From Candidatus Electrothrix yaqonensis (GTDB lineage: Bacteria; Desulfobacterota; Desulfobulbia; Desulfobulbales; Desulfobulbaceae): a stretch of 32,000 bases of DNA. Location: NCBI GenBank assembly GCA_047651235.1, contig CP178758.1:1830001-1862000 (forward strand). The letters run 5' to 3'. Below, one piece after another: positions 196 through 20,152 of this stretch. The translations under genes and the position numbers were made by a program. The notes beneath the pieces were generated by a model. It did not search any database, had not been told where the DNA came from, and worked only from the letters and a program-made list of their open reading frames with translations. Position 1 is the first letter of the stretch. Each line of letters begins with the position of its first letter.

Positions 196-307
196 CTTGT
201 ATAAGAAAGTTGATTACTGCTGTTTCCTTCTGAATTGCAAGAGAAAGAGAGGAGAAAATTTGCGGTGCGGCTTTCGTAAAAAGTTTGTCAGTCGTATACA
301 GAAACAA

Positions 308-526
308 CATTCATAATTATGGCAGCGCTTATTCAGTAAGCAGGTGCTGTGCTTTCCGGTCGGAAACGGAAAGCTGATAAAGCCACAACCGCCGCGAGGC
401 GGTGTCGGAAAACTTCGGGTCTCCGGAAAGGAGACGGCCGGGTTGCCTGCTTTTAGTCAGATGTACCGGGAGGTAAGTTATGAAGTCGAAGCTCCTTAAA
501 ACGGTCTGTAACCATACAGTCCTTTT
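308..526 (+). ncRNA. Structured RNA unit 1 (riboswitch-like or sRNA-like, class unassigned)
   Basis: Closing helix AAGCAGG (338-344) / CCTGCTT (446-452). Hairpin A 351-358/367-374. Hairpin B ACCGCC-GCGA-GGCGGT (388-403, GNRA loop). Hairpin C GTCTCC-GGAAA-GGAGAC (419-435). Then GGGAGG (468-473) and ATG (480-482). Then hairpin GGTCTGTA-ACCA-TACAGTCC (503-522) followed by TTTT (523-526). GNRA loops exist only in + strand sense. Confidence 0.6.
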
Positions 527-544
527 ACCTTTCACAAACACGAA

Positions 545-766
545 CATTCATAATTATGGCAGTGCTTATTATTCAGTAAGCAGGTGCTGTGCTTTCCGGT
601 CGGAAACGGAAAGCTGATAAAGCCACAATCGTCGCGAGGCGATGTCGGAAAACTTCGGGTCTCCGGAAAGGAGACGGCCGGGTTGCCTGCTTTTAGTCAA
701 ATGTACCGGGAGGTAAGTTATGAAGTCGAAGCTCCTTAAAACGGTCTGTAACCATACAGTCCTTTT
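545..766 (+). ncRNA. Structured RNA unit 2
   Basis: Same architecture, core 578-692. Hairpin B is ATCGTC-GCGA-GGCGAT (628-643). Relative to unit 1, one C-G pair has become T-A (629:642) and one has become a T:G wobble (632:639). ATG 720-722. Hairpin plus T-run 743-766. Confidence 0.6.
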
Positions 767-784
767 ACCTTTCACAAACACGAA

Positions 785-1003
785 CATTCATAATTATGGC
801 AGCGCTTATTCAGTAAGCAGGTGCTGTGCTTTCCGGTCAGAAACGGAAAGTTGATAAAGCCACAACCGCTGCGAGGCGGTGTCGGAAAACTTCGGGTCTC
901 CGGAAAGGAGACGGCCGGGTTGCCTGCTTTTAGTCAGATGTACCGGGAGGTAAGTTATGAAGTCGAAGCTCCTTAAAACGGTCTGTAACTATACAGTCCT
1001 TTT
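785..1003 (+). ncRNA. Structured RNA unit 3
   Basis: Core 815-929. The closing pair of hairpin A changes from G-C to G:T (828:851). Hairpin B has a C-G to T:G change (870:875). The other changes fall in loops (GTCGGAAA to GTCAGAAA; ACCA to ACTA). ATG 957-959. Hairpin plus T-run 980-1003. Confidence 0.6.
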
Positions 1004-1021
1004 ACCTTTCACAAACACGAA

Positions 1022-1194
1022 CATTCATAATTATGGCAGCGCTTATTCAGTAAGCAGGTGCTGTGCTTTCCGGTCGGACACGGAAAGCTGATAAAGCCAC
1101 AATCGTCGTGAGGCGATGTCGGAAAACTTCGGGTCTCCCAAAGGAGACGGCCGGGTTGCCTGCTTTTAGTCAAATCTGTACCGGGAGGTAAGTT
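1022..1194 (+). ncRNA. Structured RNA unit 4 (3' part replaced by unique sequence)
   Basis: Core 1052-1165. Hairpin B is ATCGTC-GTGA-GGCGAT (1102-1117): the loop is GTGA, still GNRA, and the stem carries the same compensated pair as unit 2. The hairpin C stem is kept while its loop changes (GGAAA to CAAA). GGGAGG then ATG at 1195. Confidence 0.55.
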
Positions 1195-1422
1195 ATGAAA
1201 TCGAAGTTCCCCAGAAGCGGCTTGCAGCTGTCTGTTTTCTTCAGCTGCGCCAGCAGTTCAGCTGGTCGCCGCCACTCTTCTCCTTCTGTTCGGAAAAAAC
1301 ACAAAATATTTACGGATAGTATCGGCTCCAAGTGTCATCGATCAGGTGCAGTTTTAGCTCTGTCTCCAGATTTCAAAGAGGGACAGTTCGACGATACTGA
1401 AAAACATCATTCAACCTGCTAA
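1195..1422 (+). CDS. Hypothetical 75-aa ORF starting at the conserved SD/ATG of RNA unit 4 (doubtful)
   Basis: GGGAGG lies 7 nt upstream of the ATG. The product has no recognisable motif and odd composition. It is the only ORF in 788-1640. It may be noncoding. Confidence 0.2.
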   Translation: MKSKFPRSGLQLSVFFSCASSSAGRRHSSPSVRKKHKIFTDSIGSKCHRSGAVLALSPDFKEGQFDDTEKHHSTC

Positions 1423-1664: not shown

Positions 1665-2078
1665 ATGGATAGATATTTTACAATAATACTACTGATGTTA
1701 TTTCTTTGTACTGCGTCTGTGGCTATTGGAAAAGAAAATAAACAATTTTCCGGTGCTTTTTTGATTGACCAAACTGTAAAAGCAAACGATTTTACCGGGA
1801 AATCTGTTAGTGATGCCGGTGTTGCCCAAGGCGGAAATGTTGTTACAGGAATGGCGATTGCAGGAGTAGGTCAGAACGCAATTCTTGACGGTGACCTTGA
1901 ATTGAAAATGAAAAAAGGCGAGCGCAACACCCAGGGCCTGAACGTTGTTTCCGGCAAAGTAACGGCGCTTGTCGGTCAGATCGGCGTGGTTGATGAGGAT
2001 GCCGCACTGAAATCTGTAGGCAATGAGAAGTCTGCGCAGGGCATAAACGTGGTCAACGCCTGCGAGGGATGTCAGTAA
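1665..2078 (+). CDS. Secreted QG-x-NV repeat protein, copy 0 (137 aa; chimeric: divergent low-GC 5' part, 3' part identical to the array)
   Basis: GGAGG (1652-1656) lies 8 nt before the ATG at 1665; the track start at 1641 is a TTG. Hydrophobic signal peptide MDRYFTIILLMLFLCTASVAIG. From nt 1917 onward it is identical to the downstream copies. Confidence 0.8.
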   Translation: MDRYFTIILLMLFLCTASVAIGKENKQFSGAFLIDQTVKANDFTGKSVSDAGVAQGGNVVTGMAIAGVGQNAILDGDLELKMKKGERNTQGLNVVSGKVTALVGQIGVVDEDAALKSVGNEKSAQGINVVNACEGCQ

Positions 2079-2093
2079 TCAGGAAGTCGAAAA

Positions 2094-2151
2094 CGCCGGA
2101 CGGTGCGTGTCCGGCGGTACAGGATACAACGGAAGCGGTGGGGACCGCTTC
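2094..2151 (+). other. Intercistronic double hairpin, present in all six 111-bp spacers (also at +537, +1074, +1611, +2148, +2685)
   Basis: Hairpin CGCCGGAC-GGTGCGT-GTCCGGCG (2094-2116) and hairpin GAAGCGGT-GGGG-ACCGCTTC (2132-2151). Neither is followed by a T-run. TACAAT (2163-2168) and GGAG follow. Confidence 0.6.
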
Positions 2152-2189
2152 ATTAACTACACTACAATTGTACTACGGAGACTGAAGAA

Positions 2190-2615
2190 ATGAAAATGAA
2201 ATTTATAGCAGCAGCATTCGCACTGGCACTGGCAGTACCCGCAGCATCCATGGCCAACGGCGGCAGGCATCATCAGTTCGGCGGTCAGGCTGCCGGTATC
2301 GTGCAGGGTCTTGAAACCGGTGAGGATTTTTCGGCAGATTCAATAGGCGACGAGAAAGTCACTCAGGGCGGCAACGTGGTCAAGGGTAATGTGACCAAAG
2401 GTATCCTGCAGCTCGCCGATGTGGGCGGTGATCTTGATCTGACCATGGTGGGCGGCGAGCGCAACACCCAGGGCCTGAACGTTGTTTCCGGCAAAGTAAC
2501 GGCGCTTGTCGGTCAGATCGGCGTGGTTGATGAGGATGCCGCACTGAAATCTGTAGGCAATGAGAAGTCTGCGCAGGGCATAAACGTGGTCAACGCCTGC
2601 GAGGGATGTCAGTAA
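2190..2615 (+). CDS. Secreted QG-x-NV repeat protein, array copy 1 (141 aa)
   Basis: GGAG lies 9 nt before the ATG. Signal peptide MKMKFIAAAFALALAVPAASMA. QG-x-NVV occurs at residues 59-64, 94-99 and 129-134, exactly 35 residues apart. C-terminus is NACEGCQ. Confidence 0.85.
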   Translation: MKMKFIAAAFALALAVPAASMANGGRHHQFGGQAAGIVQGLETGEDFSADSIGDEKVTQGGNVVKGNVTKGILQLADVGGDLDLTMVGGERNTQGLNVVSGKVTALVGQIGVVDEDAALKSVGNEKSAQGINVVNACEGCQ

Positions 2616-2726
2616 TCAGGAAGTCGAAAACGCCGGACGGTGCGTGTCCGGCGGTACAGGATACAACGGAAGCGGTGGGGACCGCTTCATTAACTACACT
2701 ACAATTGTACTACGGAGACTGAAGAA

Positions 2727-3152
2727 ATGAAAATGAAATTTATAGCAGCAGCATTCGCACTGGCACTGGCAGTACCCGCAGCATCCATGGCCAACGGCGG
2801 CAGGCATCATCAGTTCGGCGGTCAGGCTGCCGGTATCGTGCAGGGTCTTGAAACCGGTGAGGATTTTTCGGCAGATTCAATAGGCGACGAGAAAGTCACT
2901 CAGGGCGGCAACGTGGTCAAGGGTAATGTGACCAAAGGTATCCTGCAGCTCGCCGATGTGGGCGGTGATCTTGATCTGACCATGGTGGGCGGCGAGCGCA
3001 ACACCCAGGGCCTGAACGTTGTTTCCGGCAAAGTAACGGCGCTTGTCGGTCAGATCGGCGTGGTTGATGAGGATGCCGCACTGAAATCTGTAGGCAATGA
3101 GAAGTCTGCGCAGGGCATAAACGTGGTCAACGCCTGCGAGGGATGTCAGTAA
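2727..3152 (+). CDS. Secreted QG-x-NV repeat protein, array copy 2 (identical)
   Basis: Translation and flanks identical to 2190-2615. Confidence 0.85.
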   Translation: MKMKFIAAAFALALAVPAASMANGGRHHQFGGQAAGIVQGLETGEDFSADSIGDEKVTQGGNVVKGNVTKGILQLADVGGDLDLTMVGGERNTQGLNVVSGKVTALVGQIGVVDEDAALKSVGNEKSAQGINVVNACEGCQ

Positions 3153-3263
3153 TCAGGAAGTCGAAAACGCCGGACGGTGCGTGTCCGGCGGTACAGGATA
3201 CAACGGAAGCGGTGGGGACCGCTTCATTAACTACACTACAATTGTACTACGGAGACTGAAGAA

Positions 3264-3689
3264 ATGAAAATGAAATTTATAGCAGCAGCATTCGCACTGG
3301 CACTGGCAGTACCCGCAGCATCCATGGCCAACGGCGGCAGGCATCATCAGTTCGGCGGTCAGGCTGCCGGTATCGTGCAGGGTCTTGAAACCGGTGAGGA
3401 TTTTTCGGCAGATTCAATAGGCGACGAGAAAGTCACTCAGGGCGGCAACGTGGTCAAGGGTAATGTGACCAAAGGTATCCTGCAGCTCGCCGATGTGGGC
3501 GGTGATCTTGATCTGACCATGGTGGGCGGCGAGCGCAACACCCAGGGCCTGAACGTTGTTTCCGGCAAAGTAACGGCGCTTGTCGGTCAGATCGGCGTGG
3601 TTGATGAGGATGCCGCACTGAAATCTGTAGGCAATGAGAAGTCTGCGCAGGGCATAAACGTGGTCAACGCCTGCGAGGGATGTCAGTAA
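3264..3689 (+). CDS. Secreted QG-x-NV repeat protein, array copy 3 (identical)
   Basis: Translation and flanks identical to 2190-2615. Confidence 0.85.
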   Translation: MKMKFIAAAFALALAVPAASMANGGRHHQFGGQAAGIVQGLETGEDFSADSIGDEKVTQGGNVVKGNVTKGILQLADVGGDLDLTMVGGERNTQGLNVVSGKVTALVGQIGVVDEDAALKSVGNEKSAQGINVVNACEGCQ

Positions 3690-3800
3690 TCAGGAAGTCG
3701 AAAACGCCGGACGGTGCGTGTCCGGCGGTACAGGATACAACGGAAGCGGTGGGGACCGCTTCATTAACTACACTACAATTGTACTACGGAGACTGAAGAA

Positions 3801-4226
3801 ATGAAAATGAAATTTATAGCAGCAGCATTCGCACTGGCACTGGCAGTACCCGCAGCATCCATGGCCAACGGCGGCAGGCATCATCAGTTCGGCGGTCAGG
3901 CTGCCGGTATCGTGCAGGGTCTTGAAACCGGTGAGGATTTTTCGGCAGATTCAATAGGCGACGAGAAAGTCACTCAGGGCGGCAACGTGGTCAAGGGTAA
4001 TGTGACCAAAGGTATCCTGCAGCTCGCCGATGTGGGCGGTGATCTTGATCTGACCATGGTGGGCGGCGAGCGCAACACCCAGGGCCTGAACGTTGTTTCC
4101 GGCAAAGTAACGGCGCTTGTCGGTCAGATCGGCGTGGTTGATGAGGATGCCGCACTGAAATCTGTAGGCAATGAGAAGTCTGCGCAGGGCATAAACGTGG
4201 TCAACGCCTGCGAGGGATGTCAGTAA
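3801..4226 (+). CDS. Secreted QG-x-NV repeat protein, array copy 4 (identical)
   Basis: Translation and flanks identical to 2190-2615. Confidence 0.85.
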   Translation: MKMKFIAAAFALALAVPAASMANGGRHHQFGGQAAGIVQGLETGEDFSADSIGDEKVTQGGNVVKGNVTKGILQLADVGGDLDLTMVGGERNTQGLNVVSGKVTALVGQIGVVDEDAALKSVGNEKSAQGINVVNACEGCQ

Positions 4227-4337
4227 TCAGGAAGTCGAAAACGCCGGACGGTGCGTGTCCGGCGGTACAGGATACAACGGAAGCGGTGGGGACCGCTTCA
4301 TTAACTACACTACAATTGTACTACGGAGACTGAAGAA

Positions 4338-4763
4338 ATGAAAATGAAATTTATAGCAGCAGCATTCGCACTGGCACTGGCAGTACCCGCAGCATCCATG
4401 GCCAACGGCGGCAGGCATCATCAGTTCGGCGGTCAGGCTGCCGGTATCGTGCAGGGTCTTGAAACCGGTGAGGATTTTTCGGCAGATTCAATAGGCGACG
4501 AGAAAGTCACTCAGGGCGGCAACGTGGTCAAGGGTAATGTGACCAAAGGTATCCTGCAGCTCGCCGATGTGGGCGGTGATCTTGATCTGACCATGGTGGG
4601 CGGCGAGCGCAACACCCAGGGCCTGAACGTTGTTTCCGGCAAAGTAACGGCGCTTGTCGGTCAGATCGGCGTGGTTGATGAGGATGCCGCACTGAAATCT
4701 GTAGGCAATGAGAAGTCTGCGCAGGGCATAAACGTGGTCAACGCCTGCGAGGGATGTCAGTAA
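4338..4763 (+). CDS. Secreted QG-x-NV repeat protein, array copy 5 (identical)
   Basis: Translation and flanks identical to 2190-2615. Confidence 0.85.
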   Translation: MKMKFIAAAFALALAVPAASMANGGRHHQFGGQAAGIVQGLETGEDFSADSIGDEKVTQGGNVVKGNVTKGILQLADVGGDLDLTMVGGERNTQGLNVVSGKVTALVGQIGVVDEDAALKSVGNEKSAQGINVVNACEGCQ

Positions 4764-4874
4764 TCAGGAAGTCGAAAACGCCGGACGGTGCGTGTCCGGC
4801 GGTACAGGATACAACGGAAGCGGTGGGGACCGCTTCATTAACTACACTACAATTGTACTACGGAGACTGAAGAA

Positions 4875-5300
4875 ATGAAAATGAAATTTATAGCAGCAGC
4901 ATTCGCACTGGCACTGGCAGTACCCGCAGCATCCATGGCCAACGGCGGCAGGCATCATCAGTTCGGCGGTCAGGCTGCCGGTATCGTGCAGGGTCTTGAA
5001 ACCGGTGAGGATTTTTCGGCAGATTCAATAGGCGACGAGAAAGTCACTCAGGGCGGCAACGTGGTCAAGGGTAATGTGACCAAAGGTATCCTGCAGCTCG
5101 CCGATGTGGGCGGTGATCTTGATCTGACCATGGTGGGCGGCGAGCGCAACACCCAGGGCCTGAACGTTGTTTCCGGCAAAGTAACGGCGCTTGTCGGTCA
5201 GATCGGCGTGGTTGATGAGGATGCCGCACTGAAATCTGTAGGCAATGAGAAGTCTGCGCAGGGCATAAACGTGGTCAACGCCTGCGAGGGATGTCAGTAA
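4875..5300 (+). CDS. Secreted QG-x-NV repeat protein, array copy 6 (identical; last unit)
   Basis: Translation identical to 2190-2615. Downstream sequence diverges immediately after the stop codon. Confidence 0.85.
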   Translation: MKMKFIAAAFALALAVPAASMANGGRHHQFGGQAAGIVQGLETGEDFSADSIGDEKVTQGGNVVKGNVTKGILQLADVGGDLDLTMVGGERNTQGLNVVSGKVTALVGQIGVVDEDAALKSVGNEKSAQGINVVNACEGCQ

Positions 5301-5503
5301 GTTTGCAGGTCAGGGATATTTGAGGTACAGTATACTTGACTCCTAAGTGGAAAAGCCGCCTGCCGCTGTCGGTAAGGATTTGATATTGCGTCTAATTTTT
5401 TGTTTACGGACTCGGCAGGTAAACTTTCCCGCTCGATATGTTAAGCAGGTTACCTGTTATATATTTTATTCAGATAATAATCTGTTGCTGAAGGAGGAGA
5501 ACA

Positions 5504-5941
5504 ATGGTAAAAAAAATATTTTTTACAATAGGCACCGCTGCGATCTTTTTGTTGCCGTCAGCGGCTATGTCACATGAACGAGGTAATCTCTTTGATCAGT
5601 TTAACAATGCTGATGTTGCGGCATTTCAGGGAGTATTTCTGGACCAGGCCATGACAGTGACGTCGTCGAATGATACCAATTCTGTTCAGGGACTGAATGT
5701 GATCAAGGGATTTGCTGCCGGTGGCAAAGTGGTACAAAAGGCTATAGTTGACGCAGACTTATCGTTTGATATGTCTGGCGGGAACGATGCTGTTCAGGGG
5801 ATCAATGTCTATCAGGGCCATCTCAGGAGGGGGAAAATCTCTCAGCTGGCGATTGTTGACGGTAAGGTCACGATGGCATCAAGCGGTAATGATGGTGGAA
5901 TTCAGGGGATTAATGTGATCACCGGCCCTCAGTGCAACTGA
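5504..5941 (+). CDS. Divergent paralog of the QG-x-NV repeat protein (145 aa)
   Basis: AGGAGG lies before the ATG. Signal peptide MVKKIFFTIGTAAIFLLPSAAMS. QG-[LI]-NV at residues 62, 98 and 134 (36-residue spacing). C-terminus is GPQCN. Confidence 0.8.
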   Translation: MVKKIFFTIGTAAIFLLPSAAMSHERGNLFDQFNNADVAAFQGVFLDQAMTVTSSNDTNSVQGLNVIKGFAAGGKVVQKAIVDADLSFDMSGGNDAVQGINVYQGHLRRGKISQLAIVDGKVTMASSGNDGGIQGINVITGPQCN

Positions 5942-6033
5942 TCTTTGTCCTGTCTGGTTTCCGGATTCAATTTTTTCCCTGTCGGGAGATCTCAATAGCC
6001 AATTATGGTGCTTTTTCAGAGGGAGGAGTTGTT

Positions 6034-6381
6034 ATGAAAAGAAGTCTTATATTATCCGTTGTGTTATGCTGTTCTGTCCTGGCGGTTCAGGCGGCGTGTG
6101 CGTCTGAAGATGGAATGAAGATAAAAAAAGCAGACATTCCAAATGCAAACAGGACAGGGACTCTGGCATCAGTAATGAAGAAGGCCAAAGGGATTCAGGA
6201 TGATCAAGGACAAATTAACGAGATAACCGGCGGCACTAAGCTGACTGACGAAAAAGGAAACATCGTTGTTGTTGATGACCTAGACGAACCCACATGTGTT
6301 TTTTACGGCAATTACAACGAAGGTGACGCTAACGTCGATCAATATTTCAATATTGATAAGCTTGAGATTCAATGCAATTAA
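6034..6381 (+). CDS. Small secreted protein (115 aa), distant or minor member of the same locus
   Basis: GGGAGGAG (6021-6028) lies before the ATG at 6034; the track start at 5932 adds a non-signal-like extension. Signal peptide MKRSLILSVVLCCSVLAVQAACA. One QGQINEITGG motif. The C-terminus EIQCN shares QCN with the 5504 paralog. Confidence 0.7.
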   Translation: MKRSLILSVVLCCSVLAVQAACASEDGMKIKKADIPNANRTGTLASVMKKAKGIQDDQGQINEITGGTKLTDEKGNIVVVDDLDEPTCVFYGNYNEGDANVDQYFNIDKLEIQCN

Positions 6382-6596
6382 GGACAAGACAACGGGATAA
6401 TCTGCTGTCCTGTTTGTTTCGTTACCTTCTCTGAAGTTTTTTCTGATATTTTTGTTGTATTTTTTATCCTTTCCCGGTTAGAATCAGCAACAAAGAATAT
6501 GAGAATAAACTTATGAGGAAGGGTGTCTTCGGATAACTGTCTGACTCCTCCTTTCTCTTTCTTTCCCCCAAGTTGCTGCCATAGCATGCCTGCCTT

Positions 6597-6623
6597 AAAT
6601 GCCTTTTGTCTGGGCATTTTTTA
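6597..6623 (+). terminator. Candidate intrinsic terminator ending the small-protein operon
   Basis: AAATGCC (6597-6603), 9-nt loop, GGCATTT (6613-6619), then TTTTAT. The stem is short and AT-rich. Confidence 0.45.
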
Positions 6624-6727
6624 TGCGTTTAACAGGCTATTATGTCGTTTCCGCATAGTAGGCGGTAGCTTGGGTTACCTTCCCTGAAAAACACGAGCTG
6701 CTTTTCAGCGGCAAAAATGCAAAATAA

Positions 6728-8266
6728 ATGAAGCGGTTACTCCGATCAGCCTGTCTGGGTGCTGTCCTGGCATGTATAAATACGGGATGCACAAATGTTG
6801 ATTCCGTAATATCAAATATTAACAGAGAAACGCCGTATTCTGCCTCAACAAATCTCACCGAAACGTTGAAATGTATAGGTATGGTGATCAATGAATCCGA
6901 ATCACGCCCTATTCTCTTTCTGGTAGATGATTTTTTTGACGGCACTGTTCCTATTGTAACAGATGCTCAAGCTATCCTGACAAGAGCCTACAGAAGTAAC
7001 GGCCCACTGGCTGACGGGGGAAAATATGATTTTGAGGCTGTCATCAAGCGGACAGTCTCCAGTCAGAAAATTGTCCTTCCGTATGCACTGCCCACCGGTG
7101 TAATACAGCATGAAGACATATATGGAAGGCTGAAGCCGGAGTACTTACAGGATCTTCTTAAAATATATAATGTCTCCGGTGTCGTCAGAGTGAAAGGAGT
7201 ATTCACCCAGAATGATTCCGCCGACTATATAAACAACGGATCCGGCAACAGTATCGAGCAGGAGGGAAAACGTGGTCGGACCGAGATAGAATACGGTCTC
7301 TCTGAAGCGTCCAAAAGTGTATCTCTGGCAATCTATCTGGGAAGTCCCTTGAATAATACTCTGATTGCCGCCACAACATTGACACTCAACATGCATACAA
7401 TGTCTGATGAGTTTTCAGTTGGTTTCGGATACGGGGAAGGTTCGATGAGTTTTGTCAACGAATCAAAAATTAAGGAAGGGCTGCATGGTTCGCAGAGAAC
7501 TCTGATTGAAGCTGCCGCAATGTGGATACTGCGCGGTCTGTACAGCAAACTTGATTTTTCTCAATGCGTTGCAGGGGGAGACGGAGAAGGCGGTGCTGCT
7601 ACACCTGATGCGACGATTGCGGCAAATGAAAGATGGCTGTCGCTTGATCCGGGAATGAAAATAAAATATCTGAAATTGATGCTCAGAGAGTTGGAGTACT
7701 ACAACGGTTCGATCAGCGACAGATATGATATCCCTCTGCAGAAAGCAATTGCCGCGTATGAAGCTGACAGCGGTATAATGATACCACATACAAAACATAA
7801 TCTGGGTGATCTGTTTATCTCACTATACGGTGCTGTTGAGATTGAAGAAATTGACAGAATGGCAAAGCATTCGGAAGTTTTCTTCGGAAATTGGGGCAGG
7901 AAACCGAAGAAAAGCACTGAGAAGGAGAATGCTGAACAGAGAGCTGTTAATCAGGATACTCCTGAAGATACTACGACTGGTCAGCAAAAAGATTCTGAGC
8001 AGAAGCCCATCAGGCAGGATTCTTCTAAAAAGGAGACCGCTAATCAGAAAAATCAGAAGCAGGCGCCCGCAGCTTCTGCGCAGAGGTCTGTTAATCAGGG
8101 GAACCCCGGAAATACAACTGGTAGGGAGAAGCAACAGATCCCTGAACAGAGGAAACCTGCTGAACGGGAGAGTACTGAAAAAAAACCGGTTGAAAGGAGG
8201 ATAGGGAGAAATACCACTGCCGGTTTGGTTATTATAAACGGTAAACGTCCTGTTAATTATAAATAG
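6728..8266 (+). CDS. Lipoprotein: CsgG-like(?) N-terminal domain + PG_binding_1-like domain + disordered K/Q/E-rich tail (512 aa)
   Basis: Signal with lipobox VLAC (MKRLLRSACLGAVLAC). My by-eye alignment to E. coli CsgG: ILFLVDDFFDGT versus KIFVSVYNIQDETG; VVRVKGVFTQNDS versus IMVEGSIIGYESN; SVSLAIYLGSPLNNTLIAATTLT versus QIAVNLRVVNVSTGEILSSVNTS. The PG-binding pattern is KYLKLMLRELEYYNGSISDRYDIPLQKAIAAYEADSGI. The last 130 or so residues are low complexity. Confidence 0.75.
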   Translation: MKRLLRSACLGAVLACINTGCTNVDSVISNINRETPYSASTNLTETLKCIGMVINESESRPILFLVDDFFDGTVPIVTDAQAILTRAYRSNGPLADGGKYDFEAVIKRTVSSQKIVLPYALPTGVIQHEDIYGRLKPEYLQDLLKIYNVSGVVRVKGVFTQNDSADYINNGSGNSIEQEGKRGRTEIEYGLSEASKSVSLAIYLGSPLNNTLIAATTLTLNMHTMSDEFSVGFGYGEGSMSFVNESKIKEGLHGSQRTLIEAAAMWILRGLYSKLDFSQCVAGGDGEGGAATPDATIAANERWLSLDPGMKIKYLKLMLRELEYYNGSISDRYDIPLQKAIAAYEADSGIMIPHTKHNLGDLFISLYGAVEIEEIDRMAKHSEVFFGNWGRKPKKSTEKENAEQRAVNQDTPEDTTTGQQKDSEQKPIRQDSSKKETANQKNQKQAPAASAQRSVNQGNPGNTTGREKQQIPEQRKPAERESTEKKPVERRIGRNTTAGLVIINGKRPVNYK

Positions 8267-12280: not shown

Positions 12281-13177
12281 ATGAAAATGAAATGCATCTC
12301 GGCATCTTTACTGCTCTTTTTACTCTTTTGGTTTGTTCCGACTGTTCAGGCGGCCGATTATACGAACAGTCTCGGTATGCAGTTCAACAATATCCCTGCC
12401 GGAACCTTCTTTATGGGGAGCTGTCTCCCTGAAGGAGCTGTCTGTCCCGGCAGGGGAAAAGCGGATAAAGATGCCCATAAGGGAGAGGCGCCCAAGCACG
12501 AAGTGCGGATTAGCAGAGGATTTCAGATAGGTGTTTATGAAGTCACTTTAGGAGAGTTTAAACAATATCTTGCCTGCCTGCCCGCCGGAGAGCGGGCTGC
12601 AGTGGCAACAGACAGATTCAGCAGATTTAATACACACGGGGATAATGCGGCTGTGGTGGTTGTTTCCTGGGAGGATGTACAGGGATTTATCCGCTGGCTG
12701 AACAAAAAAGAGGGTGGCCGTGCCTACCGGCTGCCCACCGAGGCGGAATGGGAGTATGCTGCCAGGGCGGGAACAGAGACGGTGTATTTCTGGGGCGATG
12801 AACCGGAGAAGGCTCCGGAATATGCCTGGCTTAACATGGAAGGAGCAGACCTGCGCAAATGGTTCCAGAAAGGGCCTTCGGGGAAAAAAGAAGATTTTCC
12901 TCATCCAGTCGGTCTGAAGAAACCCAATCCCTGGGGCTTATACGATATAGCTGGCAATGTCTGGGAGTGGGTGGATGACTGGTACAGCGAGGACTATTAC
13001 CGCATCAGTCCCAAGGTTGATCCGACCGGTCCGGCAACCGGTCGTGTCCGTTGTTTTCGGGGCGGCAGCTGGTACGGGTCGGCAAGGAATTTGCGCTCCG
13101 CTGTCCGCGGGCTGAATACCCCAGATTACCTCAGCGATTCTTTGGGATTCCGTCTGGTGCGGCAGGTCGGACGATAA
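12281..13177 (+). CDS. Secreted formylglycine-generating-enzyme (SUMF1/FGE-sulfatase) domain protein
   Basis: Signal peptide ...VPTVQA. YRLPTEAEWEYAARAG, GNVWEWVDDWY and RGGSW are hallmark strings of the FGE-sulfatase domain. AGGAG lies before the ATG. Confidence 0.85.
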   Translation: MKMKCISASLLLFLLFWFVPTVQAADYTNSLGMQFNNIPAGTFFMGSCLPEGAVCPGRGKADKDAHKGEAPKHEVRISRGFQIGVYEVTLGEFKQYLACLPAGERAAVATDRFSRFNTHGDNAAVVVVSWEDVQGFIRWLNKKEGGRAYRLPTEAEWEYAARAGTETVYFWGDEPEKAPEYAWLNMEGADLRKWFQKGPSGKKEDFPHPVGLKKPNPWGLYDIAGNVWEWVDDWYSEDYYRISPKVDPTGPATGRVRCFRGGSWYGSARNLRSAVRGLNTPDYLSDSLGFRLVRQVGR

Positions 13178-13243
13178 TTTTTCTCAGTTTCTCTGCAAAC
13201 AGGGCCGGTTCGGACCGGTTTGCAGCGGGTGGATATGATACCC

Positions 13244-14029
13244 TCATCTTTTTTCCCTGCTGAAGCGTTCTTTGAAAATCAGATAGAAAAAAAACAGGTT
13301 GCCGATCAGATATCTCTTCCACAATCGTTTCGGTTCGATGAGCAGTCTGGCCAGCCATTCCATGCCGTTGTCTGTCATCCAGCTAGGGCCTCGGCGCAAT
13401 TCCCCGGAAACATAGTCGAACAGGGCACCGGCGGAAAAACCGACATTGACGTTCAGCCTGTCCCAATTTTCCTTGAGCCACTTTTCCTGCAGCGGCATAC
13501 CGAACCCGACAATCAGAACATTGGCCTTTGAGGCATTGATCAGGCGGATAATTTCCTCATTCTCCGGCGAATCCGGGGATTTGTCAAAATATCCGTGCCG
13601 GGTGGTGATCTGCAGAGCAGGAAAACGTTCTTTCAGTTTCAGCGCAGCTTTGTCGGCGATACCCGGTTTTGCCCCGAGGAAAAAAAAGCTGATGCCTTTC
13701 TCTTCCGCCAGTTCTGCCAGGCTCCACATCGAATCGGCCGGGGTGCTGCGCCCCGGTATGTGATGACCCAGAATTCTGGCGCCCAGGACAACACCGGCTC
13801 CGTCACAGAAGACCAGCCCGGCCTGATTGAGAAAATCCCGCAGCCAGGGGTTATGATACACCATATTGTAGCAGTGCGTATTGACATTCAGGACCAGAGA
13901 CTTGCGTTGTCGGGCAACTACATCGGCGATGTACTGGCAGATTCCTGCTTCCCCTAACAGATGGACCTGCACACCGAGGATAGGGACACTGTCGAGATGG
14001 TCAAAAGACTGTATGGATTGGGTTGTCAT
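13244..14029 (-). CDS. WecB/TagA/CpsF-family glycosyltransferase
   Basis: DGAGVVLGARILG and ...GPSWMTDNGMEWLARLLIEPKRLWKRYLIGN are typical of this family. Start set at the ATG at 14029 (MTTQSIQ); the alternative at 14092 would overlap the upstream gene. Confidence 0.8.
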   Translation of the reverse strand: MTTQSIQSFDHLDSVPILGVQVHLLGEAGICQYIADVVARQRKSLVLNVNTHCYNMVYHNPWLRDFLNQAGLVFCDGAGVVLGARILGHHIPGRSTPADSMWSLAELAEEKGISFFFLGAKPGIADKAALKLKERFPALQITTRHGYFDKSPDSPENEEIIRLINASKANVLIVGFGMPLQEKWLKENWDRLNVNVGFSAGALFDYVSGELRRGPSWMTDNGMEWLARLLIEPKRLWKRYLIGNLFFFYLIFKERFSREKR

Positions 14030-14054
14030 GGTACGGTCATCAGATAAACAGGAC

Positions 14055-15212
14055 TTACTGAACAAGTTCAGTGTACAGGCGCATGTAGGCATCTGTCATT
14101 GTTTTTGCAGAGTACTTTTCCGCTATGGTTGCAAAGGCATTGGCCGCCATCCTGTCTGCTTCTTCGGGAAGGCGCAGCAGCCGGAGCATTGCGGAAGCCA
14201 GCTTTTCCGCATTGGCCGGAGGGACCAGCAGGCCGTTTTCCTCATCTTGGATGATCCGGCCTACCCCGCCGACTTCACTTGCAATGACCGGGAGTTGCGC
14301 GGACATGGCTTCCAGCAGGGCCATGGGTGTGCCTTCCAGCAGCGAAGGCAGAACAAAAATATCCAAGGCAGAATAGAATGCAGCGATATTCGGACGGAAT
14401 CCGGCAAAGATCACTGCGTCCGAGATACCGAGTTCTACAGCGTATTGCCGCATTTCGTCCCCCTGAAACCCGTCACCCACAAGAATAAAATGTGCTTCAG
14501 GGAAAACTTTCAGCACCTGCGCAGCTGCAGCAAGAAAGTATTTCTGGCCTTTTTCCGGGCTGATCCTGCCGAATACGCCGATCAGCGGCGTTCCCGGCGC
14601 GATCTTGAATTCTTCGCGAATTGTGTCCCTTGCCTGCTGATCTTTCCGGAATTCCTGCATATCGATCCCGTTGATGATCACCTGCATTTTTCCGGCCGGG
14701 GTCAGATAGCGGCGCATGAGCTGCCGGACCTCCGGTGAAACCGCGACGATTTTCGGAAAAAAGCGGATGTAAAAAGCATCCAGGGATTCAAAGCAGGTGA
14801 CCAGAAAATCACTGCGGATCCAGTTGTGATTTGTGGTGATGAGCCGGGCCGGAGTGCCCATTGCAGAGAGCAGGCCGTAGAGCCGTCCTTTCATTTCATG
14901 GCAGTGGACAACGGCAATGTTCTCCCGGCGGATGAGTTCCCTGATCTGCCGCACCGCTTCCGGATCGATCCATCTCCGGCAGGTGATGACATGCCCCTGA
15001 GCGTCTTTTGCCTGGGCAGCATTGATCAGTTCCATGTTCGGATAGCCTTCCGCTTGGAGCAGGGCTATAGACGGGGTGAAGCGGCTGTGGTCCGTAGCGC
15101 CGATCAGATTCAGGATAATGCGTTCAGCACCGTACAGACCGCGGCTGCTGATCAGATGGAGTACGTTCAGAGGCTGCTGCTCTACGGTATTCTGTGTATT
15201 CTGCTTCGTCAT
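14055..15212 (-). CDS. Glycosyltransferase family 4 (GT-B, group 1)
   Basis: 385 aa. N-terminal LHLISSRGLYGAERI and C-terminal ...LPSLLEGTPMALLEAMSAQLPVIAS...ENGLLV (the E-x7-E region of GT4). Confidence 0.85.
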   Translation of the reverse strand: MTKQNTQNTVEQQPLNVLHLISSRGLYGAERIILNLIGATDHSRFTPSIALLQAEGYPNMELINAAQAKDAQGHVITCRRWIDPEAVRQIRELIRRENIAVVHCHEMKGRLYGLLSAMGTPARLITTNHNWIRSDFLVTCFESLDAFYIRFFPKIVAVSPEVRQLMRRYLTPAGKMQVIINGIDMQEFRKDQQARDTIREEFKIAPGTPLIGVFGRISPEKGQKYFLAAAAQVLKVFPEAHFILVGDGFQGDEMRQYAVELGISDAVIFAGFRPNIAAFYSALDIFVLPSLLEGTPMALLEAMSAQLPVIASEVGGVGRIIQDEENGLLVPPANAEKLASAMLRLLRLPEEADRMAANAFATIAEKYSAKTMTDAYMRLYTELVQ

Positions 15213-15229
15213 TGTTTTTTGTTTACGGT

Positions 15230-16384
15230 TTACTCTGCTTCCGCCCTGCCTGTGCTGCGGAGCGCCAGCCGGACTGCGTCCGCATAGCCTTTTACCGCTG
15301 GTGCGAGGTCATTTTTCCGGGCAAGTATTTTTCCGGCCTCGGCCATACGTTGGCGCATCTCTGGATCACGGGCCATTTTTTCCATTGCTGCAGCCATTTC
15401 ATCCGTATTTTCCGGATCAACAATGATGCCGTTTTCCCTGACCATATCGTTGGCTGCCCCGGCATAGCGGGAACAGATGACCGGAAGACCGCAGGCCACG
15501 GCTTCAGCCACCACCAGGCCGAAAACATCCAGCCGTGTGGGCAGGACAAAGACATCATGCCGGACCATTTCTGCGGGCACAGATTCATACGGGACACTGC
15601 CCGGAAAAAGAACAGCATGCTCACAGCCCAGCTCCTTTGCCAGCGCCTTGAGCGCTTCCAGATCAACACCTTTGCCGATTAGGGTCAGCAGGGCGTCAGG
15701 GACAGATTCCAGCAGCCGGGCAAAGGCCCGGATCAGTAGGTCAATACCCTTTCTCGGCTTTATCTCACCAACATAGACGAACTTGACCGGGTCGTTATCC
15801 TGCCGTGGCGGTTTTTCCGGTACGCCGACTGCAGCCAGATGCTCCTGAATATGGGCGCTCAGGCTGCTGAGAAACTCTTTTGATTTGGGGTAACCGAAGT
15901 TGTCGCTGAAGTGATCCAGCGTGTCTGTACAGGAGCCGATCAGGGCATGGGCAAAAAAAAGCAGAAATCTGCGGTTGCTCCTTCTGAGCAGGCCCATACG
16001 TTTGTCATGGTGATAGGTCATATCTGACCAGATCACATAACTCCGCCGGTTCAACCGCGCCCAGAGGGCACCGATAATGCAGTCAAAACGGAATTCCAGA
16101 CTGACCACCACATCCGGTCGGATCTTCCTTAGCCTCTGCAGCAGCCCGGAAGGATAGCGAATCAGCAGACGCTCTCCGAACATCTGATTGGTTTTCCACA
16201 AAAAAAACGGCTTTAAATAATAGGCGCGAAAGGGCAGGTCCTCAGGAGGGTGCCATTCTCTGCCGACTTCCTTGGGCATGGTATAGAGCACCGTGATATC
16301 AAATTCACGGGCCAGTTCACGCAGCAGGGGCACCCGATAAGGATCGTACCAGGGGCACAGGATCAGGACGGTCTTTTTTTTCAT
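15230..16384 (-). CDS. Glycosyltransferase family 4 (GT-B, group 1)
   Basis: ...FVLPTRLDVFGLVVAEAVACGLPVICS...ENGIIV is the GT4 signature. Start set at the ATG at 16384 (MKKKTVLIL); a GTG at 16402 is the alternative. Confidence 0.8.
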   Translation of the reverse strand: MKKKTVLILCPWYDPYRVPLLRELAREFDITVLYTMPKEVGREWHPPEDLPFRAYYLKPFFLWKTNQMFGERLLIRYPSGLLQRLRKIRPDVVVSLEFRFDCIIGALWARLNRRSYVIWSDMTYHHDKRMGLLRRSNRRFLLFFAHALIGSCTDTLDHFSDNFGYPKSKEFLSSLSAHIQEHLAAVGVPEKPPRQDNDPVKFVYVGEIKPRKGIDLLIRAFARLLESVPDALLTLIGKGVDLEALKALAKELGCEHAVLFPGSVPYESVPAEMVRHDVFVLPTRLDVFGLVVAEAVACGLPVICSRYAGAANDMVRENGIIVDPENTDEMAAAMEKMARDPEMRQRMAEAGKILARKNDLAPAVKGYADAVRLALRSTGRAEAE

Positions 16385-16412
16385 CCGGTTATCTGGTTGC
16401 ACGATTTGCCGG

Positions 16413-17132
16413 TCAGAATTGACGTCGGCGGAAAAAATTTTTTATTCTGCGGGCAGGCTGGAGCAGGATACGCATCACCCATGTTGCACGCCACCCTGTA
16501 TTGTGCAGATCACTGTGTGAAGCACGGTCCCGGATGACTTGCGGTTCAGCAATCAGGGTCAGGGTCTCCGGATATTTTCTCCGGAAGACGTTGAACGCAC
16601 CATCGACATCTATTGGTCTGTGCTGCTCCAGTTCCTCAAGATGCTCAATGAGAGGAGCAAACGTCGGGCGGCTGACAGCGTATGCATGTGTGCATCTGAG
16701 AGAATCGGGCAGCGGGCGCATTTCGACGTGTTCGGTTTTCCGTGAAGCAAGTGTACTGCCTTCAACATGCGTATAGCCGAGGTAGGCGAAGTTCCATGAT
16801 GCGTCCTGCAGTTGCTGCTGCATAGCTGGCCAGAGTTGTTCAAATATACTGACAAATTCCACATCATCTTCTATGACAAGTACGTTTGAAAGGTCGAGTT
16901 CAGCAGCCTTTCTGAGGATGGAGAGATGACTGAGGAAACACCCCCGTACACCCGGAGAAGAAAACCCTGCTGCCTCGGTCGGCTTGACTGCCGGAAACAG
17001 CTCGACTTTTCCCGGAGTAAAGGAAATCCCGATACGTTGCAGCGCTTCTGTTATTTCCCGGCGACGGTCTATCCGCTCAGGAAGGTTGACAACATAGATT
17101 TTGTCGAAGTAGTTTTCCAATCTGTCATTCAT
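16413..17132 (-). CDS. Glycosyltransferase family 25-like
   Basis: 239 aa. N-terminal FDKIYVVNLPERIDRRREI and GCFLSHLSILRKA, VLVIEDDVEF match the GT25 pattern as I recall it. Confidence 0.7.
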   Translation of the reverse strand: MNDRLENYFDKIYVVNLPERIDRRREITEALQRIGISFTPGKVELFPAVKPTEAAGFSSPGVRGCFLSHLSILRKAAELDLSNVLVIEDDVEFVSIFEQLWPAMQQQLQDASWNFAYLGYTHVEGSTLASRKTEHVEMRPLPDSLRCTHAYAVSRPTFAPLIEHLEELEQHRPIDVDGAFNVFRRKYPETLTLIAEPQVIRDRASHSDLHNTGWRATWVMRILLQPARRIKNFFRRRQF

Positions 17133-17196
17133 GGCAATGTTGAAAATAAATTATTCCAGCTGGTTCTGTATGGTTCTCTATATAACGGCGTACCCG

Positions 17197-17883
17197 TCAG
17201 GACGTTTGCTGTTCAACAGCGGGAGATGGAGATGATTCTTCTGCCGCAAATTTCAGGCCGAAGAGATACCATACCATAATGCTGACGATCACCATCTCTC
17301 CTGCATCTTCGATTAATCCAAATACCTGTCCTCCCCAAGGAATGGCCACGTGAGCTACATCCACGACAACACCGAAAAAAACCAGAGAGCATGCCAGCAG
17401 AAAGATATTATGCGATATTTTCCGTTCATGATTGGTACTGAACAGGTAAGCCCAACCTATAAAGGAAAAGAGCAATACGCCGAACACAGCAGATACAGCA
17501 AGCTCCCCGAAATCCTGTGCCCGCAGGTTGAAGATCCCATGAAAACCGAAATAGTTGACCAGGAATTCCCCGAGTTGTTCATGTACTCTGAAGGAATCGT
17601 CAAGCAGAAAATAGAAAAACAATGCAGCCCAGGAAATATAAACTATTCTTTTTTCTTTGATCGCAATGATGCTCAGCAGGAGGATGATCCACAGTTCTTT
17701 TGTATACTGATAAAATTCCGCATATCCTTTATCCTTTTCTACTGAAAACAGGACACTTTCAAGAATACCTGCCATATAGAAAAGGTGGATCAGTACAAAG
17801 GCAAGATCTGCAGCAAGCAACAGAAACAAGAGTTTGTTCGTATTGTCATCTATGTCGAAATATTGTTTTATTCTCAGCTTCAT
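17197..17883 (-). CDS. Polytopic membrane protein, unknown function (about 6 TM)
   Basis: 228 aa with alternating hydrophobic segments. It lies inside the glycan cluster. No motif recognised. Confidence 0.6.
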   Translation of the reverse strand: MKLRIKQYFDIDDNTNKLLFLLLAADLAFVLIHLFYMAGILESVLFSVEKDKGYAEFYQYTKELWIILLLSIIAIKEKRIVYISWAALFFYFLLDDSFRVHEQLGEFLVNYFGFHGIFNLRAQDFGELAVSAVFGVLLFSFIGWAYLFSTNHERKISHNIFLLACSLVFFGVVVDVAHVAIPWGGQVFGLIEDAGEMVIVSIMVWYLFGLKFAAEESSPSPAVEQQTS

Positions 17884-17979
17884 CGCCTGTCCTTGTTATT
17901 CCGCATCTGCCTATGCGGAGCAGTTCTGTTCAGTTTTGTCGCATTTTGCTTTGACTGCTGCTGTCAGCGGCTGAGAGAT

Positions 17980-19137
17980 TTATTGCGCAACAGCATCTTG
18001 ACACAGCTTCAGCATCCGTCCTGCATTATCTTTCCATGTAAAATTATCTTCCATAACCTTTCTGGCGTTTTTGCCGAGCTCATGTCTGAGCTGTATATCT
18101 GTCATCAGGCGTTGTATCTGCTCAACCAAGGCGGCTTGATCACCCGGCGGGTACAACAGACCGCTTACGTTATCCGTAATCAGTTCACAAATCTGGCCCT
18201 GCGCAGAGGAAATAACAGATTTCCCCAGAGCCATGGCCTCAAAGATTTTCAGCGGTGAAAAATAAAACGGGGTGATTTTCGGATAAGGGGCAACAAAAAT
18301 ATCAATAACAGCAAGATATTCCGGTATATCTTCGTGTGGAACATGGCCGGTTATGGTTGTAACTGCAGCAGGAAAATCGGGCATTTCCAATATATCGCTT
18401 GGTTCTCCAATAAGCAGCAGGGCCAGTTCTTCATATTGATTTGATTCACAAATAAGCTCGATAGCTTCTGCCAGCAGAGGCAGCCCATGCCAGGGGGCAA
18501 AACTGCCTGAAAAACCCACAACGGTTTTATTCTGCAGTCCGAGTTGTTCTCGTATCCGGTTGCCGCTGATATCGGGATGAAAGACCTGGGGATCGACCCC
18601 GTTCGGAACGCTGCTTATTTTTTCCGCAGAAATGCCGCATGTTATATAATGTTGCCGTAATGTTTCAGAAACCACCATGTTATGAGTTGCCAGTCCCATT
18701 ATTTTTTTGTCCACCAGCGCCCAGAAAGATTTTCCTCTCAGCTGCTGCTCTTTCGGCATAAACTGGTCTTCCATAGGCGGGGCGTTGATTTCCAGGACAA
18801 GAGGAATTTTCAGCAGACGGCATAACAGAACCGCTGATCTGTACCGTGCCATTCGTAAGATGACAACATCCGGTCTTTCTTTTTTCAGCAGTCGGAATTC
18901 AGCCGCAGCCTGACGGGTAAACATGACAACAAGCAGGCGAATCTCGCGAAGGTGGTTTAAAATATTCGAGAAGCTCTCCTGTGATTCCTGTTCGTCGTCC
19001 TCCGGTGCATCCTGGCGGGCCAAGGGGGTATGCACAACAACATCATCGTGTATTTCTTTCAAAGCAGCGATAAACTGAGTGGTATGTACCCAAGAACCGC
19101 CACCGTATTTCTCATAATTTATGTAGCATATTTTCAT
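17980..19137 (-). CDS. Glycosyltransferase family 4 (GT-B, group 1)
   Basis: 385 aa. ...FVAPYPKITPFYFSPLKIFEAMALGKSVISS...SGLLY is the GT4-type C-terminal signature. Confidence 0.8.
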   Translation of the reverse strand: MKICYINYEKYGGGSWVHTTQFIAALKEIHDDVVVHTPLARQDAPEDDEQESQESFSNILNHLREIRLLVVMFTRQAAAEFRLLKKERPDVVILRMARYRSAVLLCRLLKIPLVLEINAPPMEDQFMPKEQQLRGKSFWALVDKKIMGLATHNMVVSETLRQHYITCGISAEKISSVPNGVDPQVFHPDISGNRIREQLGLQNKTVVGFSGSFAPWHGLPLLAEAIELICESNQYEELALLLIGEPSDILEMPDFPAAVTTITGHVPHEDIPEYLAVIDIFVAPYPKITPFYFSPLKIFEAMALGKSVISSAQGQICELITDNVSGLLYPPGDQAALVEQIQRLMTDIQLRHELGKNARKVMEDNFTWKDNAGRMLKLCQDAVAQ

Positions 19138-19190
19138 AATTTGAATTCAACTATTATGTATTCGGCATTACGGGAATACTGCGGAAATTG

Positions 19191-20045: not shown

Positions 20046-20152
20046 TCGTATATCCTTGGTAGTTACGATGAATAATCTAACTAATAATCTATTGTAACCG
20101 TTTTTATTTGTATCTGCACAGGATTAAAACTGATATTGAAAAAGTACGACAG

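Follow-up and report, generated by a model that had tools for sequence, protein, structure and literature searches.

Why should a cable bacterium carry the same small gene six times in a row without one base of difference between the copies? The question is raised by a 32,000-nucleotide stretch of the genome of Candidatus Electrothrix yaqonensis YB6 (contig CP178758.1, positions 1,830,001 to 1,862,000 of the forward strand; this whole stretch is hereafter the window, and positions are counted from its first base), near the left end of which lies a tandem array of genes for a 141-residue protein. The answer that we favour, at a little better than even chance, is that the major-subunit gene of an undescribed secreted beta-solenoid fibre system has truly been amplified in tandem, and that this amplification either happened very recently or is being actively homogenised.

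Geometry of the array and its chimeric left flank

When the window was compared base by base with itself at a lag of 537 bp, identity formed a single unbroken run from 1917 to 4763, and the region 1917-5300 (3384 bp, 6.30 units) was perfectly periodic with 0 mismatches. A perfect 537-bp periodicity of this kind is not possible by chance. Tandem Repeats Finder (TRF) was silent on the array solely because its maximum period was 500. The region holds six identical 141-residue open reading frames (ORFs), head to tail and all on the + strand, and the five full gene-plus-spacer units (537 bp; starts at 2190, 2727, 3264, 3801 and 4338) were mutually identical. The original prediction had described six identical genes at an exact 537-bp spacing, and the lag comparison and the list of ORFs bore this out. 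It had also counted six full gene-plus-spacer units and a 0.3 unit; the six genes and the 0.3 unit stand, but there is no repeated spacer after the sixth gene, as the perfect repeat stops at the last base of the copy 6 stop codon and gives way to unique sequence. In Candidatus Electrothrix sp. YB6 the array protein corresponds at 100% identity to ACL93V_08695, encoded on a 3.74-Mb contig, and the locus tags (ACL93V_08665 for the gene preceding the array) are consistent with seven consecutive genes.

The left end of the repeat falls inside that preceding gene, here called gene0 (1665-2078), with the 0.3 unit made up of the final 54 codons of gene0 and the first spacer. The junction at 1917 is sharp and keeps the reading frame, and G+C content at third codon positions (GC3) is 0.26 in the N-terminal two-thirds of gene0 versus 0.59 in the array copies. 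A gene0-type protein from another organism (P0010) has a different C-terminus of its own. The last 54 codons of gene0 have thus been overwritten by array sequence, and the boundary at 1917, whether left by conversion or by crossover, is direct evidence of recombination at the YB6 locus. Head-to-tail direct repeats, identical units and a hybrid junction gene, the marks of tandem amplification, were all found here, and with a gene-conversion or crossover boundary visible in gene0 the locus would show gene-dosage amplification cleanly in a natural setting. Acquisition of the array by horizontal transfer was weighed too, and the comparison of GC3 (host-typical at 0.59 in the copies, with the rest of the module AT-richer) gave no clear signal.

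The six genes are preceded by identical 111-nt spacers, the first of which had a folding z-score of -3.6 against shuffled sequence. The first of its two predicted hairpins sits just past the stop codon and is predicted also in the spacers of three metagenomic relatives (contigs L003, L005 and L006); neither hairpin is followed by a U-run, and no convincing promoter was seen in the spacer. We infer that the hairpins are stabilising or processing elements inside one polycistronic mRNA. The non-coding stretch past the last copy (5301-5503) may serve as a promoter or RNA element for the paralogous gene that follows; its identity to the corresponding stretches of L002-L004 (84-90%) exceeds that of the array-type proteins on the same contigs (73-75%).

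The array product, its partner genes and known fibre systems

Each copy encodes a protein in which a Sec-type signal peptide (MKMKFIAAAFALALAVPAASMA) and a brief Gly/His-rich segment are followed by three repeats of about 35 residues and a C-terminal CEGCQ. An invariant or near-invariant Q-G-x-N-V and another invariant Q recur in every repeat, and the C-terminal CxxC is retained in most relatives. Searched against Pfam and NCBIfam at E <= 0.1, the array protein, gene0 and the downstream paralogue had no match. A search of PDB sequences with a 37-member subunit profile gave nothing meaningful (no FapC chain at E <= 10), no relatives came from scanning genomes with the subunit alignment, and nothing relevant to the array protein was found in the literature. 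Relatives were recovered as protein clusters: seven at 90% identity by a word-indexed search, and 34 at 50% identity by an exhaustive hidden Markov model search of 1.84 billion representatives. Nearly all of the latter were of 123-148 residues; one was a fragment of 100, and the exceptions, of 226 and 1237, stood among the weakest matches.

The product of the array is confidently predicted to be a small secreted three-rung beta-solenoid. Its AlphaFold2 model, built from a 37-sequence alignment, has a mean predicted local distance difference test (pLDDT) score of 81, exceeding 90 across most of residues 41-130, and arranges nine strands as three rungs of three. None of the Foldseek matches of this model to the PDB was significant; the top one was the FapC amyloid fibril 9u4u, and it was weak (E 2e-3, probability 0.38, template modelling score 0.17), with further matches to generic solenoids (ice-binding proteins, SV2 luminal domains and bactofilin).

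Three further genes on the + strand follow the array (Table 1). The diverged paralogue, a candidate minor or nucleator subunit, has homologues at the equivalent position in L001, L003, L008 and L016, and the small secreted Cys protein after it gave no Pfam or NCBIfam match. The third product is a lipoprotein, ACL93V_08715, whose AlphaFold2 model (mean pLDDT 70) comprises an alpha/beta domain, long beta-hairpins and a C-terminal helical domain; a weak Pfam PG_binding_1 match at the helical domain is the sole Pfam or NCBIfam match among the module proteins. Foldseek matched the model to HpaA (E 1.6e-6), to FlgT and to many CsgG chains (E 8e-5 to 1e-3), each with a probability of 1.0, and then to PelC and LptE, and on this model the protein would belong to the CsgG-like lipoprotein fold class. 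Sequence comparisons were negative: there was no Pfam CsgG match, an hhalign comparison of the lipoprotein alignment with a hand-entered E. coli CsgG sequence gave a probability of 0.6%, and a PDB sequence search with the lipoprotein gave nothing meaningful. The lipoprotein ends in a Q/K/E/P-rich low-complexity tail of about 120 residues (window 7900-8266); most orthologues (355-400 residues) lack it, and the E. gigas, AUS3 and TB versions (519-547 residues) are similar in length to that of YB6. A penultimate cysteine is common to all three small secreted proteins of the module (..GCQ, ..QCN and ..QCN; window 2613, 5939 and 6379), and a 116-residue protein of Neisseria likewise has one (..GCH); the comparison took in L013, L015, L016 and L017.

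This set of products can be compared with curli. The YB6 subunit, like CsgA, is small and predicted to be Sec-exported, with imperfect Q/N/G-rich repeats and a predicted beta-solenoid fold; a diverged paralogue adjoins its gene as CsgB adjoins CsgA, a small accessory protein is present, and the predicted lipoprotein fold matches CsgG, though HpaA and FlgT match at least as well. The differences are as marked. The YB6 proteins have no sequence similarity to the Curlin_rpt (for the major subunit in Pfam and NCBIfam, at E <= 0.1) or CsgG models, and where curli has CsgE and CsgF there is the single accessory candidate at 6034-6381. The YB6 repeats are of about 35 residues with three strands per rung, whereas those of curli are of about 22 with two; the YB6 subunit ends in a CxxC that CsgA lacks; the lipoprotein, whose role as a pore is hypothetical, carries an additional helical domain similar to those that bind peptidoglycan; and c-di-GMP (cyclic di-GMP) would act in YB6 via riboswitches rather than via CsgD.

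FapC carries three repeats of about 37 residues and a conserved CxxC (PMC6173800). The YB6 subunit shares this arrangement, as architecture and not as sequence, and as in Fap a shorter or diverged paralogue is present; its weak match to the FapC fibril has been given above. The YB6 protein, however, has neither sequence homology to FapC or FapB nor long linkers between its repeats, its exporter candidate is a CsgG-fold lipoprotein, and no FapF-type beta-barrel or FapD protease was found in Pfam or NCBIfam among the ORFs at 5347-8266. For the array itself the nearest likeness is of another kind. The gas-vesicle gene gvpA occurs in cyanobacteria as arrays of identical head-to-tail copies that encode a small, very abundant structural protein; these arrays are read as a dosage device and are kept by recombination. 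In YB6, too, a small-protein gene is repeated several times head to tail without change, but protein and structure are unrelated, and YB6 adds a half-converted paralogue at the flank and riboswitches ahead. The mechanism of the array would be of a known kind, and the system that it serves an undescribed variant of functional-amyloid machinery with sequences outside the curli and Fap families.

Tandem riboswitches ahead of the array

A second tandem repeat, of 237 bp, lies upstream of gene0 and holds four aptamers of the c-di-GMP-I class (Table 1). The model of the GGC variant, RF03167, scored 54-58 bits on them, under its gathering score of 59. When read from the alignment, all four carry G/A/C at the positions equivalent to G20/A47/C92 (Vc2 numbering), the ligand-contact nucleotides of the c-di-GMP-I riboswitch; the type that binds cyclic AMP-GMP (cGAMP) has A20. 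The expected ligand is therefore c-di-GMP, and a cGAMP-specific (GEMM-Ib) or GGC-variant identity was rejected at the same contact positions. One helix shows paired C-G to U-A changes between aptamer copies (CCGCC/GGCGG versus UCGUC/GGCGA), and comparison of the copies suggests that each aptamer has been kept functional. Every unit also has a Shine-Dalgarno (SD) sequence with its AUG and a weak hairpin with a U-run. The motif GGGAGG-N7-ATG recurs after each unit on the + strand (480-617, 720-854, 957-1091 and 1195-1422); the ATG opens an ORF of 44-45 codons that enters the next aptamer in units 1-3 and one of 75 codons after unit 4. These ORFs may encode leader peptides, may be remnants of a gene start that was duplicated, or may be fortuitous.

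Control by c-di-GMP is typical of matrix (fibre) production. Tandem c-di-GMP riboswitches have been reported as enriched in Thermodesulfobacteriota (PMC12452182), and a triple-tandem c-di-GMP-I RNA, Bc3-5 of Bacillus thuringiensis, has been characterised (PMC4759541). The YB6 arrangement resembles RNAs of the Bc3-5 type in that a single leader strings together several complete units ahead of a surface or matrix protein gene. It differs from them in having four units rather than two or three, one more than the triple-tandem example, in that the units are near-identical 237-bp repeats, and in the distance of about 500 nt from the last unit to the first gene. A literature search found nothing relevant on riboswitches in cable bacteria, and Rfam found none in L001-L008; the short-read contigs (L001, L008 and L019-L022) break at or just upstream of the subunit genes.

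Relatives, mechanism and competing explanations

Homologues of the lipoprotein numbered 40 at an identity of at least 52%, and all those with an organism name came from cable bacteria (Electrothrix GW3-4, gigas, AR3 and AUS3; Electronema TJ, JC and PJ; and the early 'Desulfobulbus' F1, F4 and TB). A scan of genomes with the lipoprotein gave one contig of an Electrothrix metagenome-assembled genome, and a scan of metagenomes gave contigs of about 1 kb alone. Electrothrix GW3-4, E. gigas and Electronema PJ all have the order one or two solenoid genes, the small Cys protein and the lipoprotein, in neighbourhoods that differ, so that with YB6 the module was present in all four cable-bacterium genomes in which the locus was read; L001 and L008, from closer relatives, share the YB6 neighbourhood up to trpS. 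An omptin-family outer-membrane protein or a YkuD-type L,D-transpeptidase is encoded after the lipoprotein in Electrothrix GW3-4 (L013 11182-12162) and Electronema PJ (L016 11210-12016), and the YB6 locus has neither. The same gene order recurs in the animal-associated Neisseria animaloris, with a 128-residue solenoid, a 116-residue protein and a 307-residue lipoprotein (BLASTP against the cable-bacterial proteins: 2e-9 for the solenoid, 1e-8 for the small protein, with a range of 6e-7 to 1e-8, and 8e-31 for the lipoprotein), and the system is therefore not confined to cable bacteria. Related proteins were found in N. zalophi (solenoid) and N. dumasiana (lipoprotein), and the Neisseria subunits have no cysteines. 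In N. animaloris (L017/L018 8001-10341) a fourth gene, for a 180-residue lipoprotein, accompanies the module.

Multiplicity of the subunit gene was also seen outside YB6. Contig L006 (MEGAHIT k141, 714 bp) has identical first and last 141 bases and L007 (628 bp) a 55-base terminal overlap; since short-read assembly collapses a perfect tandem array to such a cycle, the two are read as de Bruijn cycles of one 573-bp gene-plus-spacer unit, from two different metagenome assemblies. Contig L005 has two adjacent copies about 540 bp apart and 64% identical to each other, of which the first-mentioned type is nearer to the YB6 copy (75%) and its neighbour to L003 and L006 (68-69%). L002 and L003 represent last copies, with a YB6-type spacer before and the conserved downstream region and paralogue after. 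The relatives thus include homogenised arrays (L006 and L007) and a diverged one (L005), and tandem multiplicity is therefore a feature of the lineage; the two subunit subtypes are old, with different organisms having independently amplified or homogenised one of them. The earlier suggestion of recent amplification or homogenisation agrees with these data, as the YB6 copies do not differ from one another, only 53-75% of residues are shared among homologues in other organisms, gene0 is chimeric, and arrays occur in relatives. Upstream of the single visible subunit gene of L001 (50-120) there are two direct copies of AGATTGA(C/T)ACTGGTGTCATA(T/C)TTGTTTTATT, each holding a TTGACA-like box and an inverted repeat, which may be an operator-promoter.

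We read the locus as a fibre secretion-assembly operon because it joins a solenoid subunit, a paralogue, an accessory protein and a CsgG-fold lipoprotein under probable c-di-GMP control. Subunits would cross the inner membrane by Sec and be passed to the outer-membrane lipoprotein, and outside the cell they would stack head to tail as an amyloid-like fibre, like curli CsgA and Pseudomonas FapC, with the paralogue as minor or nucleating subunit and the terminal cysteines cross-linking subunits. Six-fold amplification of the major-subunit gene is most simply a dosage device, and the earlier proposal of dosage for an abundant structural protein fits the small secreted three-rung beta-solenoid and the paralogue, accessory protein and lipoprotein with a CsgG-like fold that accompany it. 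Six cistrons with stabilising hairpins between them would raise the yield per transcript; RecA-dependent unequal crossing-over among the 537-bp units would expand and contract the array and gene conversion would keep its copies identical, while the four c-di-GMP-I riboswitches upstream would couple production to high c-di-GMP, the usual matrix signal. In the weakest step of this proposal, the product would be the nanofibre material of the extracellular sheaths of YB6, which are abundant and non-conductive, consist of 'undefined nanofibers' of unknown composition and mark YB6 off from other cable bacteria (PMC12093952). The sheath is a more natural destination for an exported, c-di-GMP-linked fibre than is the periplasmic conductive fibre.

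Several observations weigh against this fibre reading. Copy number and absolute identity are taken from the assembly, and Racon and Pilon, when applied to multi-mapping repeats, could erase rare differences between copies. Position and strand only would tie the riboswitches to the array: folding of the riboswitch units gave no clear terminator/antiterminator, SD-sequestering switch or expression platform, the last aptamer and gene0 are about 500 nt apart, with an AT-rich promoter-like region (1430-1660) between them, and in the other three cable-bacterium genomes Rfam found no riboswitch closer than 10 kb to the module. The proteins showed no homology to CsgA, FapC or CsgG at the level of sequence, the best fold match of the lipoprotein is HpaA rather than CsgG, and by eye just one of its two long hairpins is membrane-like. 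Both the formation of a fibre and its link to the sheath are steps that we infer.

Three other accounts of the locus were weighed. It is unlikely, though not negligibly so, that a real array arose in the clonal enrichment culture as a passing expansion of no selective importance, or that the protein is a secreted solenoid that does not polymerise, such as an adhesin or surface coat. Perfect identity does imply a very recent origin, just one or two subunit genes are present in the three other cable-bacterium genomes inspected, and the Foldseek matches are mainly to generic solenoids, ice-binding proteins included; yet environmental metagenomes also hold arrays of identical or near-identical copies, and the operon layout and uncapped three-repeat design fit a polymerising subunit. 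We regard as quite improbable the proposal that the array is largely an artefact of assembly or polishing, the true locus having fewer, more or non-identical copies. The YB6 genome came from a clonal enrichment, sequenced with Nanopore R10.4.1 reads and assembled with Flye, with one round each of Racon and Pilon (PMC12093952); assemblers are known to handle tandem repeats poorly, and polishing with multi-mapping reads, once with each tool, can make distinct copies appear identical. A gross artefact is nevertheless disfavoured because the 3.4-kb array fits well within single Nanopore reads; the genome closed as one 3.74-Mb contig, both flanks join unique sequence cleanly, the in-frame chimeric gene included, and independent assemblies of related organisms show the same tandem architecture.

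The remaining account, improbable in our view though slightly less so than an artefact, places the solenoid in the periplasm as a structural protein of the conduction apparatus (shell or scaffold of the conductive fibres, ridges or cartwheel), with the amplification serving the unusually wide ridges of YB6. In its favour are the presence of the module in each cable-bacterium genome inspected and the recovery of the lipoprotein family otherwise only from cable bacteria, and it draws on the CxxC end of the subunit, the penultimate Cys of all three small proteins and the resemblance of the lipoprotein's C-terminal part to a peptidoglycan-binding domain. Published models cap Ni-dithiolene oligomers with cysteines (bioRxiv 10.1101/2025.10.10.681601), and the proteins of the conductive fibres are still unidentified (PMC13534509). 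The module in N. animaloris and the related proteins in N. zalophi and N. dumasiana speak against it, as none of these are cable bacteria and the Neisseria subunits are free of cysteines, as do the fold of the lipoprotein, which suggests outer-membrane export or ring formation, and the probable c-di-GMP control, of a type usual for matrix production. A more specific form, which we hold to be very doubtful and the least probable of the proposals considered, would make the CxxC-tipped solenoid, its Cys-bearing partner and a peptidoglycan-tethered lipoprotein the scaffold of the conductive fibres or ridges, with cysteine pairs anchoring or capping nickel-dithiolene ribbons; the six-fold amplification in YB6 would then reflect its three-fold wider ridges.

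The proteins of cable-bacterial conductive fibres and of sheaths are still unidentified (PMC13534509; PMC12093952), and the locus offers a concrete candidate in a cable-bacterial module that couples a secreted orphan solenoid to a CsgG-fold lipoprotein of its own. Its six-fold amplification behind four c-di-GMP riboswitches occurs in the one described species that over-produces sheaths. Should the fibre reading be true, the system would be a third architecture, distinct in sequence, beside the curli and Fap functional amyloids.

Table 1. Features of the array, its flanks and its leader, in window coordinates
Feature	Position	Strand	Remarks
237-bp tandem repeat	306..1210	+	TRF; 3.8 units, 94% matches; four c-di-GMP-I aptamers
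c-di-GMP-I aptamers	372-450, 612-690, 849-927, 1086-1163	+	Rfam RF01051, 54-56 bits against a gathering score of 35
gene0 (ACL93V_08665), chimeric paralogue, 137 aa	1665..2078	+	own AT-rich N-terminal two-thirds; last 54 codons array-identical
Perfect 537-bp tandem repeat	1917..5300	+	6.30 units, 0 mismatches
111-nt spacer, first of six identical	2079..2189	+	two G+C-rich hairpins, no U-tail; GGAG ribosome-binding site at end
Subunit gene copy 1, 141 aa	2190..2615	+	signal peptide, three ~35-aa QGxNV repeats, C-terminal CEGCQ; 100% identical to ACL93V_08695
Subunit gene copy 2	2727..3152	+	identical to copy 1
Subunit gene copy 3	3264..3689	+	identical to copy 1
Subunit gene copy 4	3801..4226	+	identical to copy 1
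Subunit gene copy 5	4338..4763	+	identical to copy 1
Subunit gene copy 6	4875..5300	+	identical to copy 1; repeat terminates on stop codon
Non-coding stretch past last copy	5301..5503	+	84% identical to L003/L004, 90% to L002
Diverged paralogue, 145 aa	5504..5941	+	32% identical to array protein, ends QCN; candidate minor or nucleator subunit
Small secreted Cys protein, 115 aa	6034..6381	+	motif EPxCxFYGNYN, ends QCN; conserved accessory gene
Lipoprotein ACL93V_08715, 512 aa	6728..8266	+	lipobox NTGC; alpha/beta domain, helical domain, Q/K/E/P-rich tail

Two further loci were noted in the window. An exopolysaccharide-type cluster occupies 12281-22532, with a gene for an FGE-sulfatase-domain protein on the + strand (12281-13177) and the rest on the - strand, where WecG-type and GT25 glycosyltransferases, three GT4 glycosyltransferases, two sulfotransferases and a Wzx-like flippase are encoded; the gene content points to a sulfated surface polysaccharide that would be made near the fibre locus. 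Beyond it, on the - strand, an ORF of 3125 codons (22591-31968) encodes a three-module non-ribosomal peptide synthetase with three C, A and PCP sets and a thioesterase.

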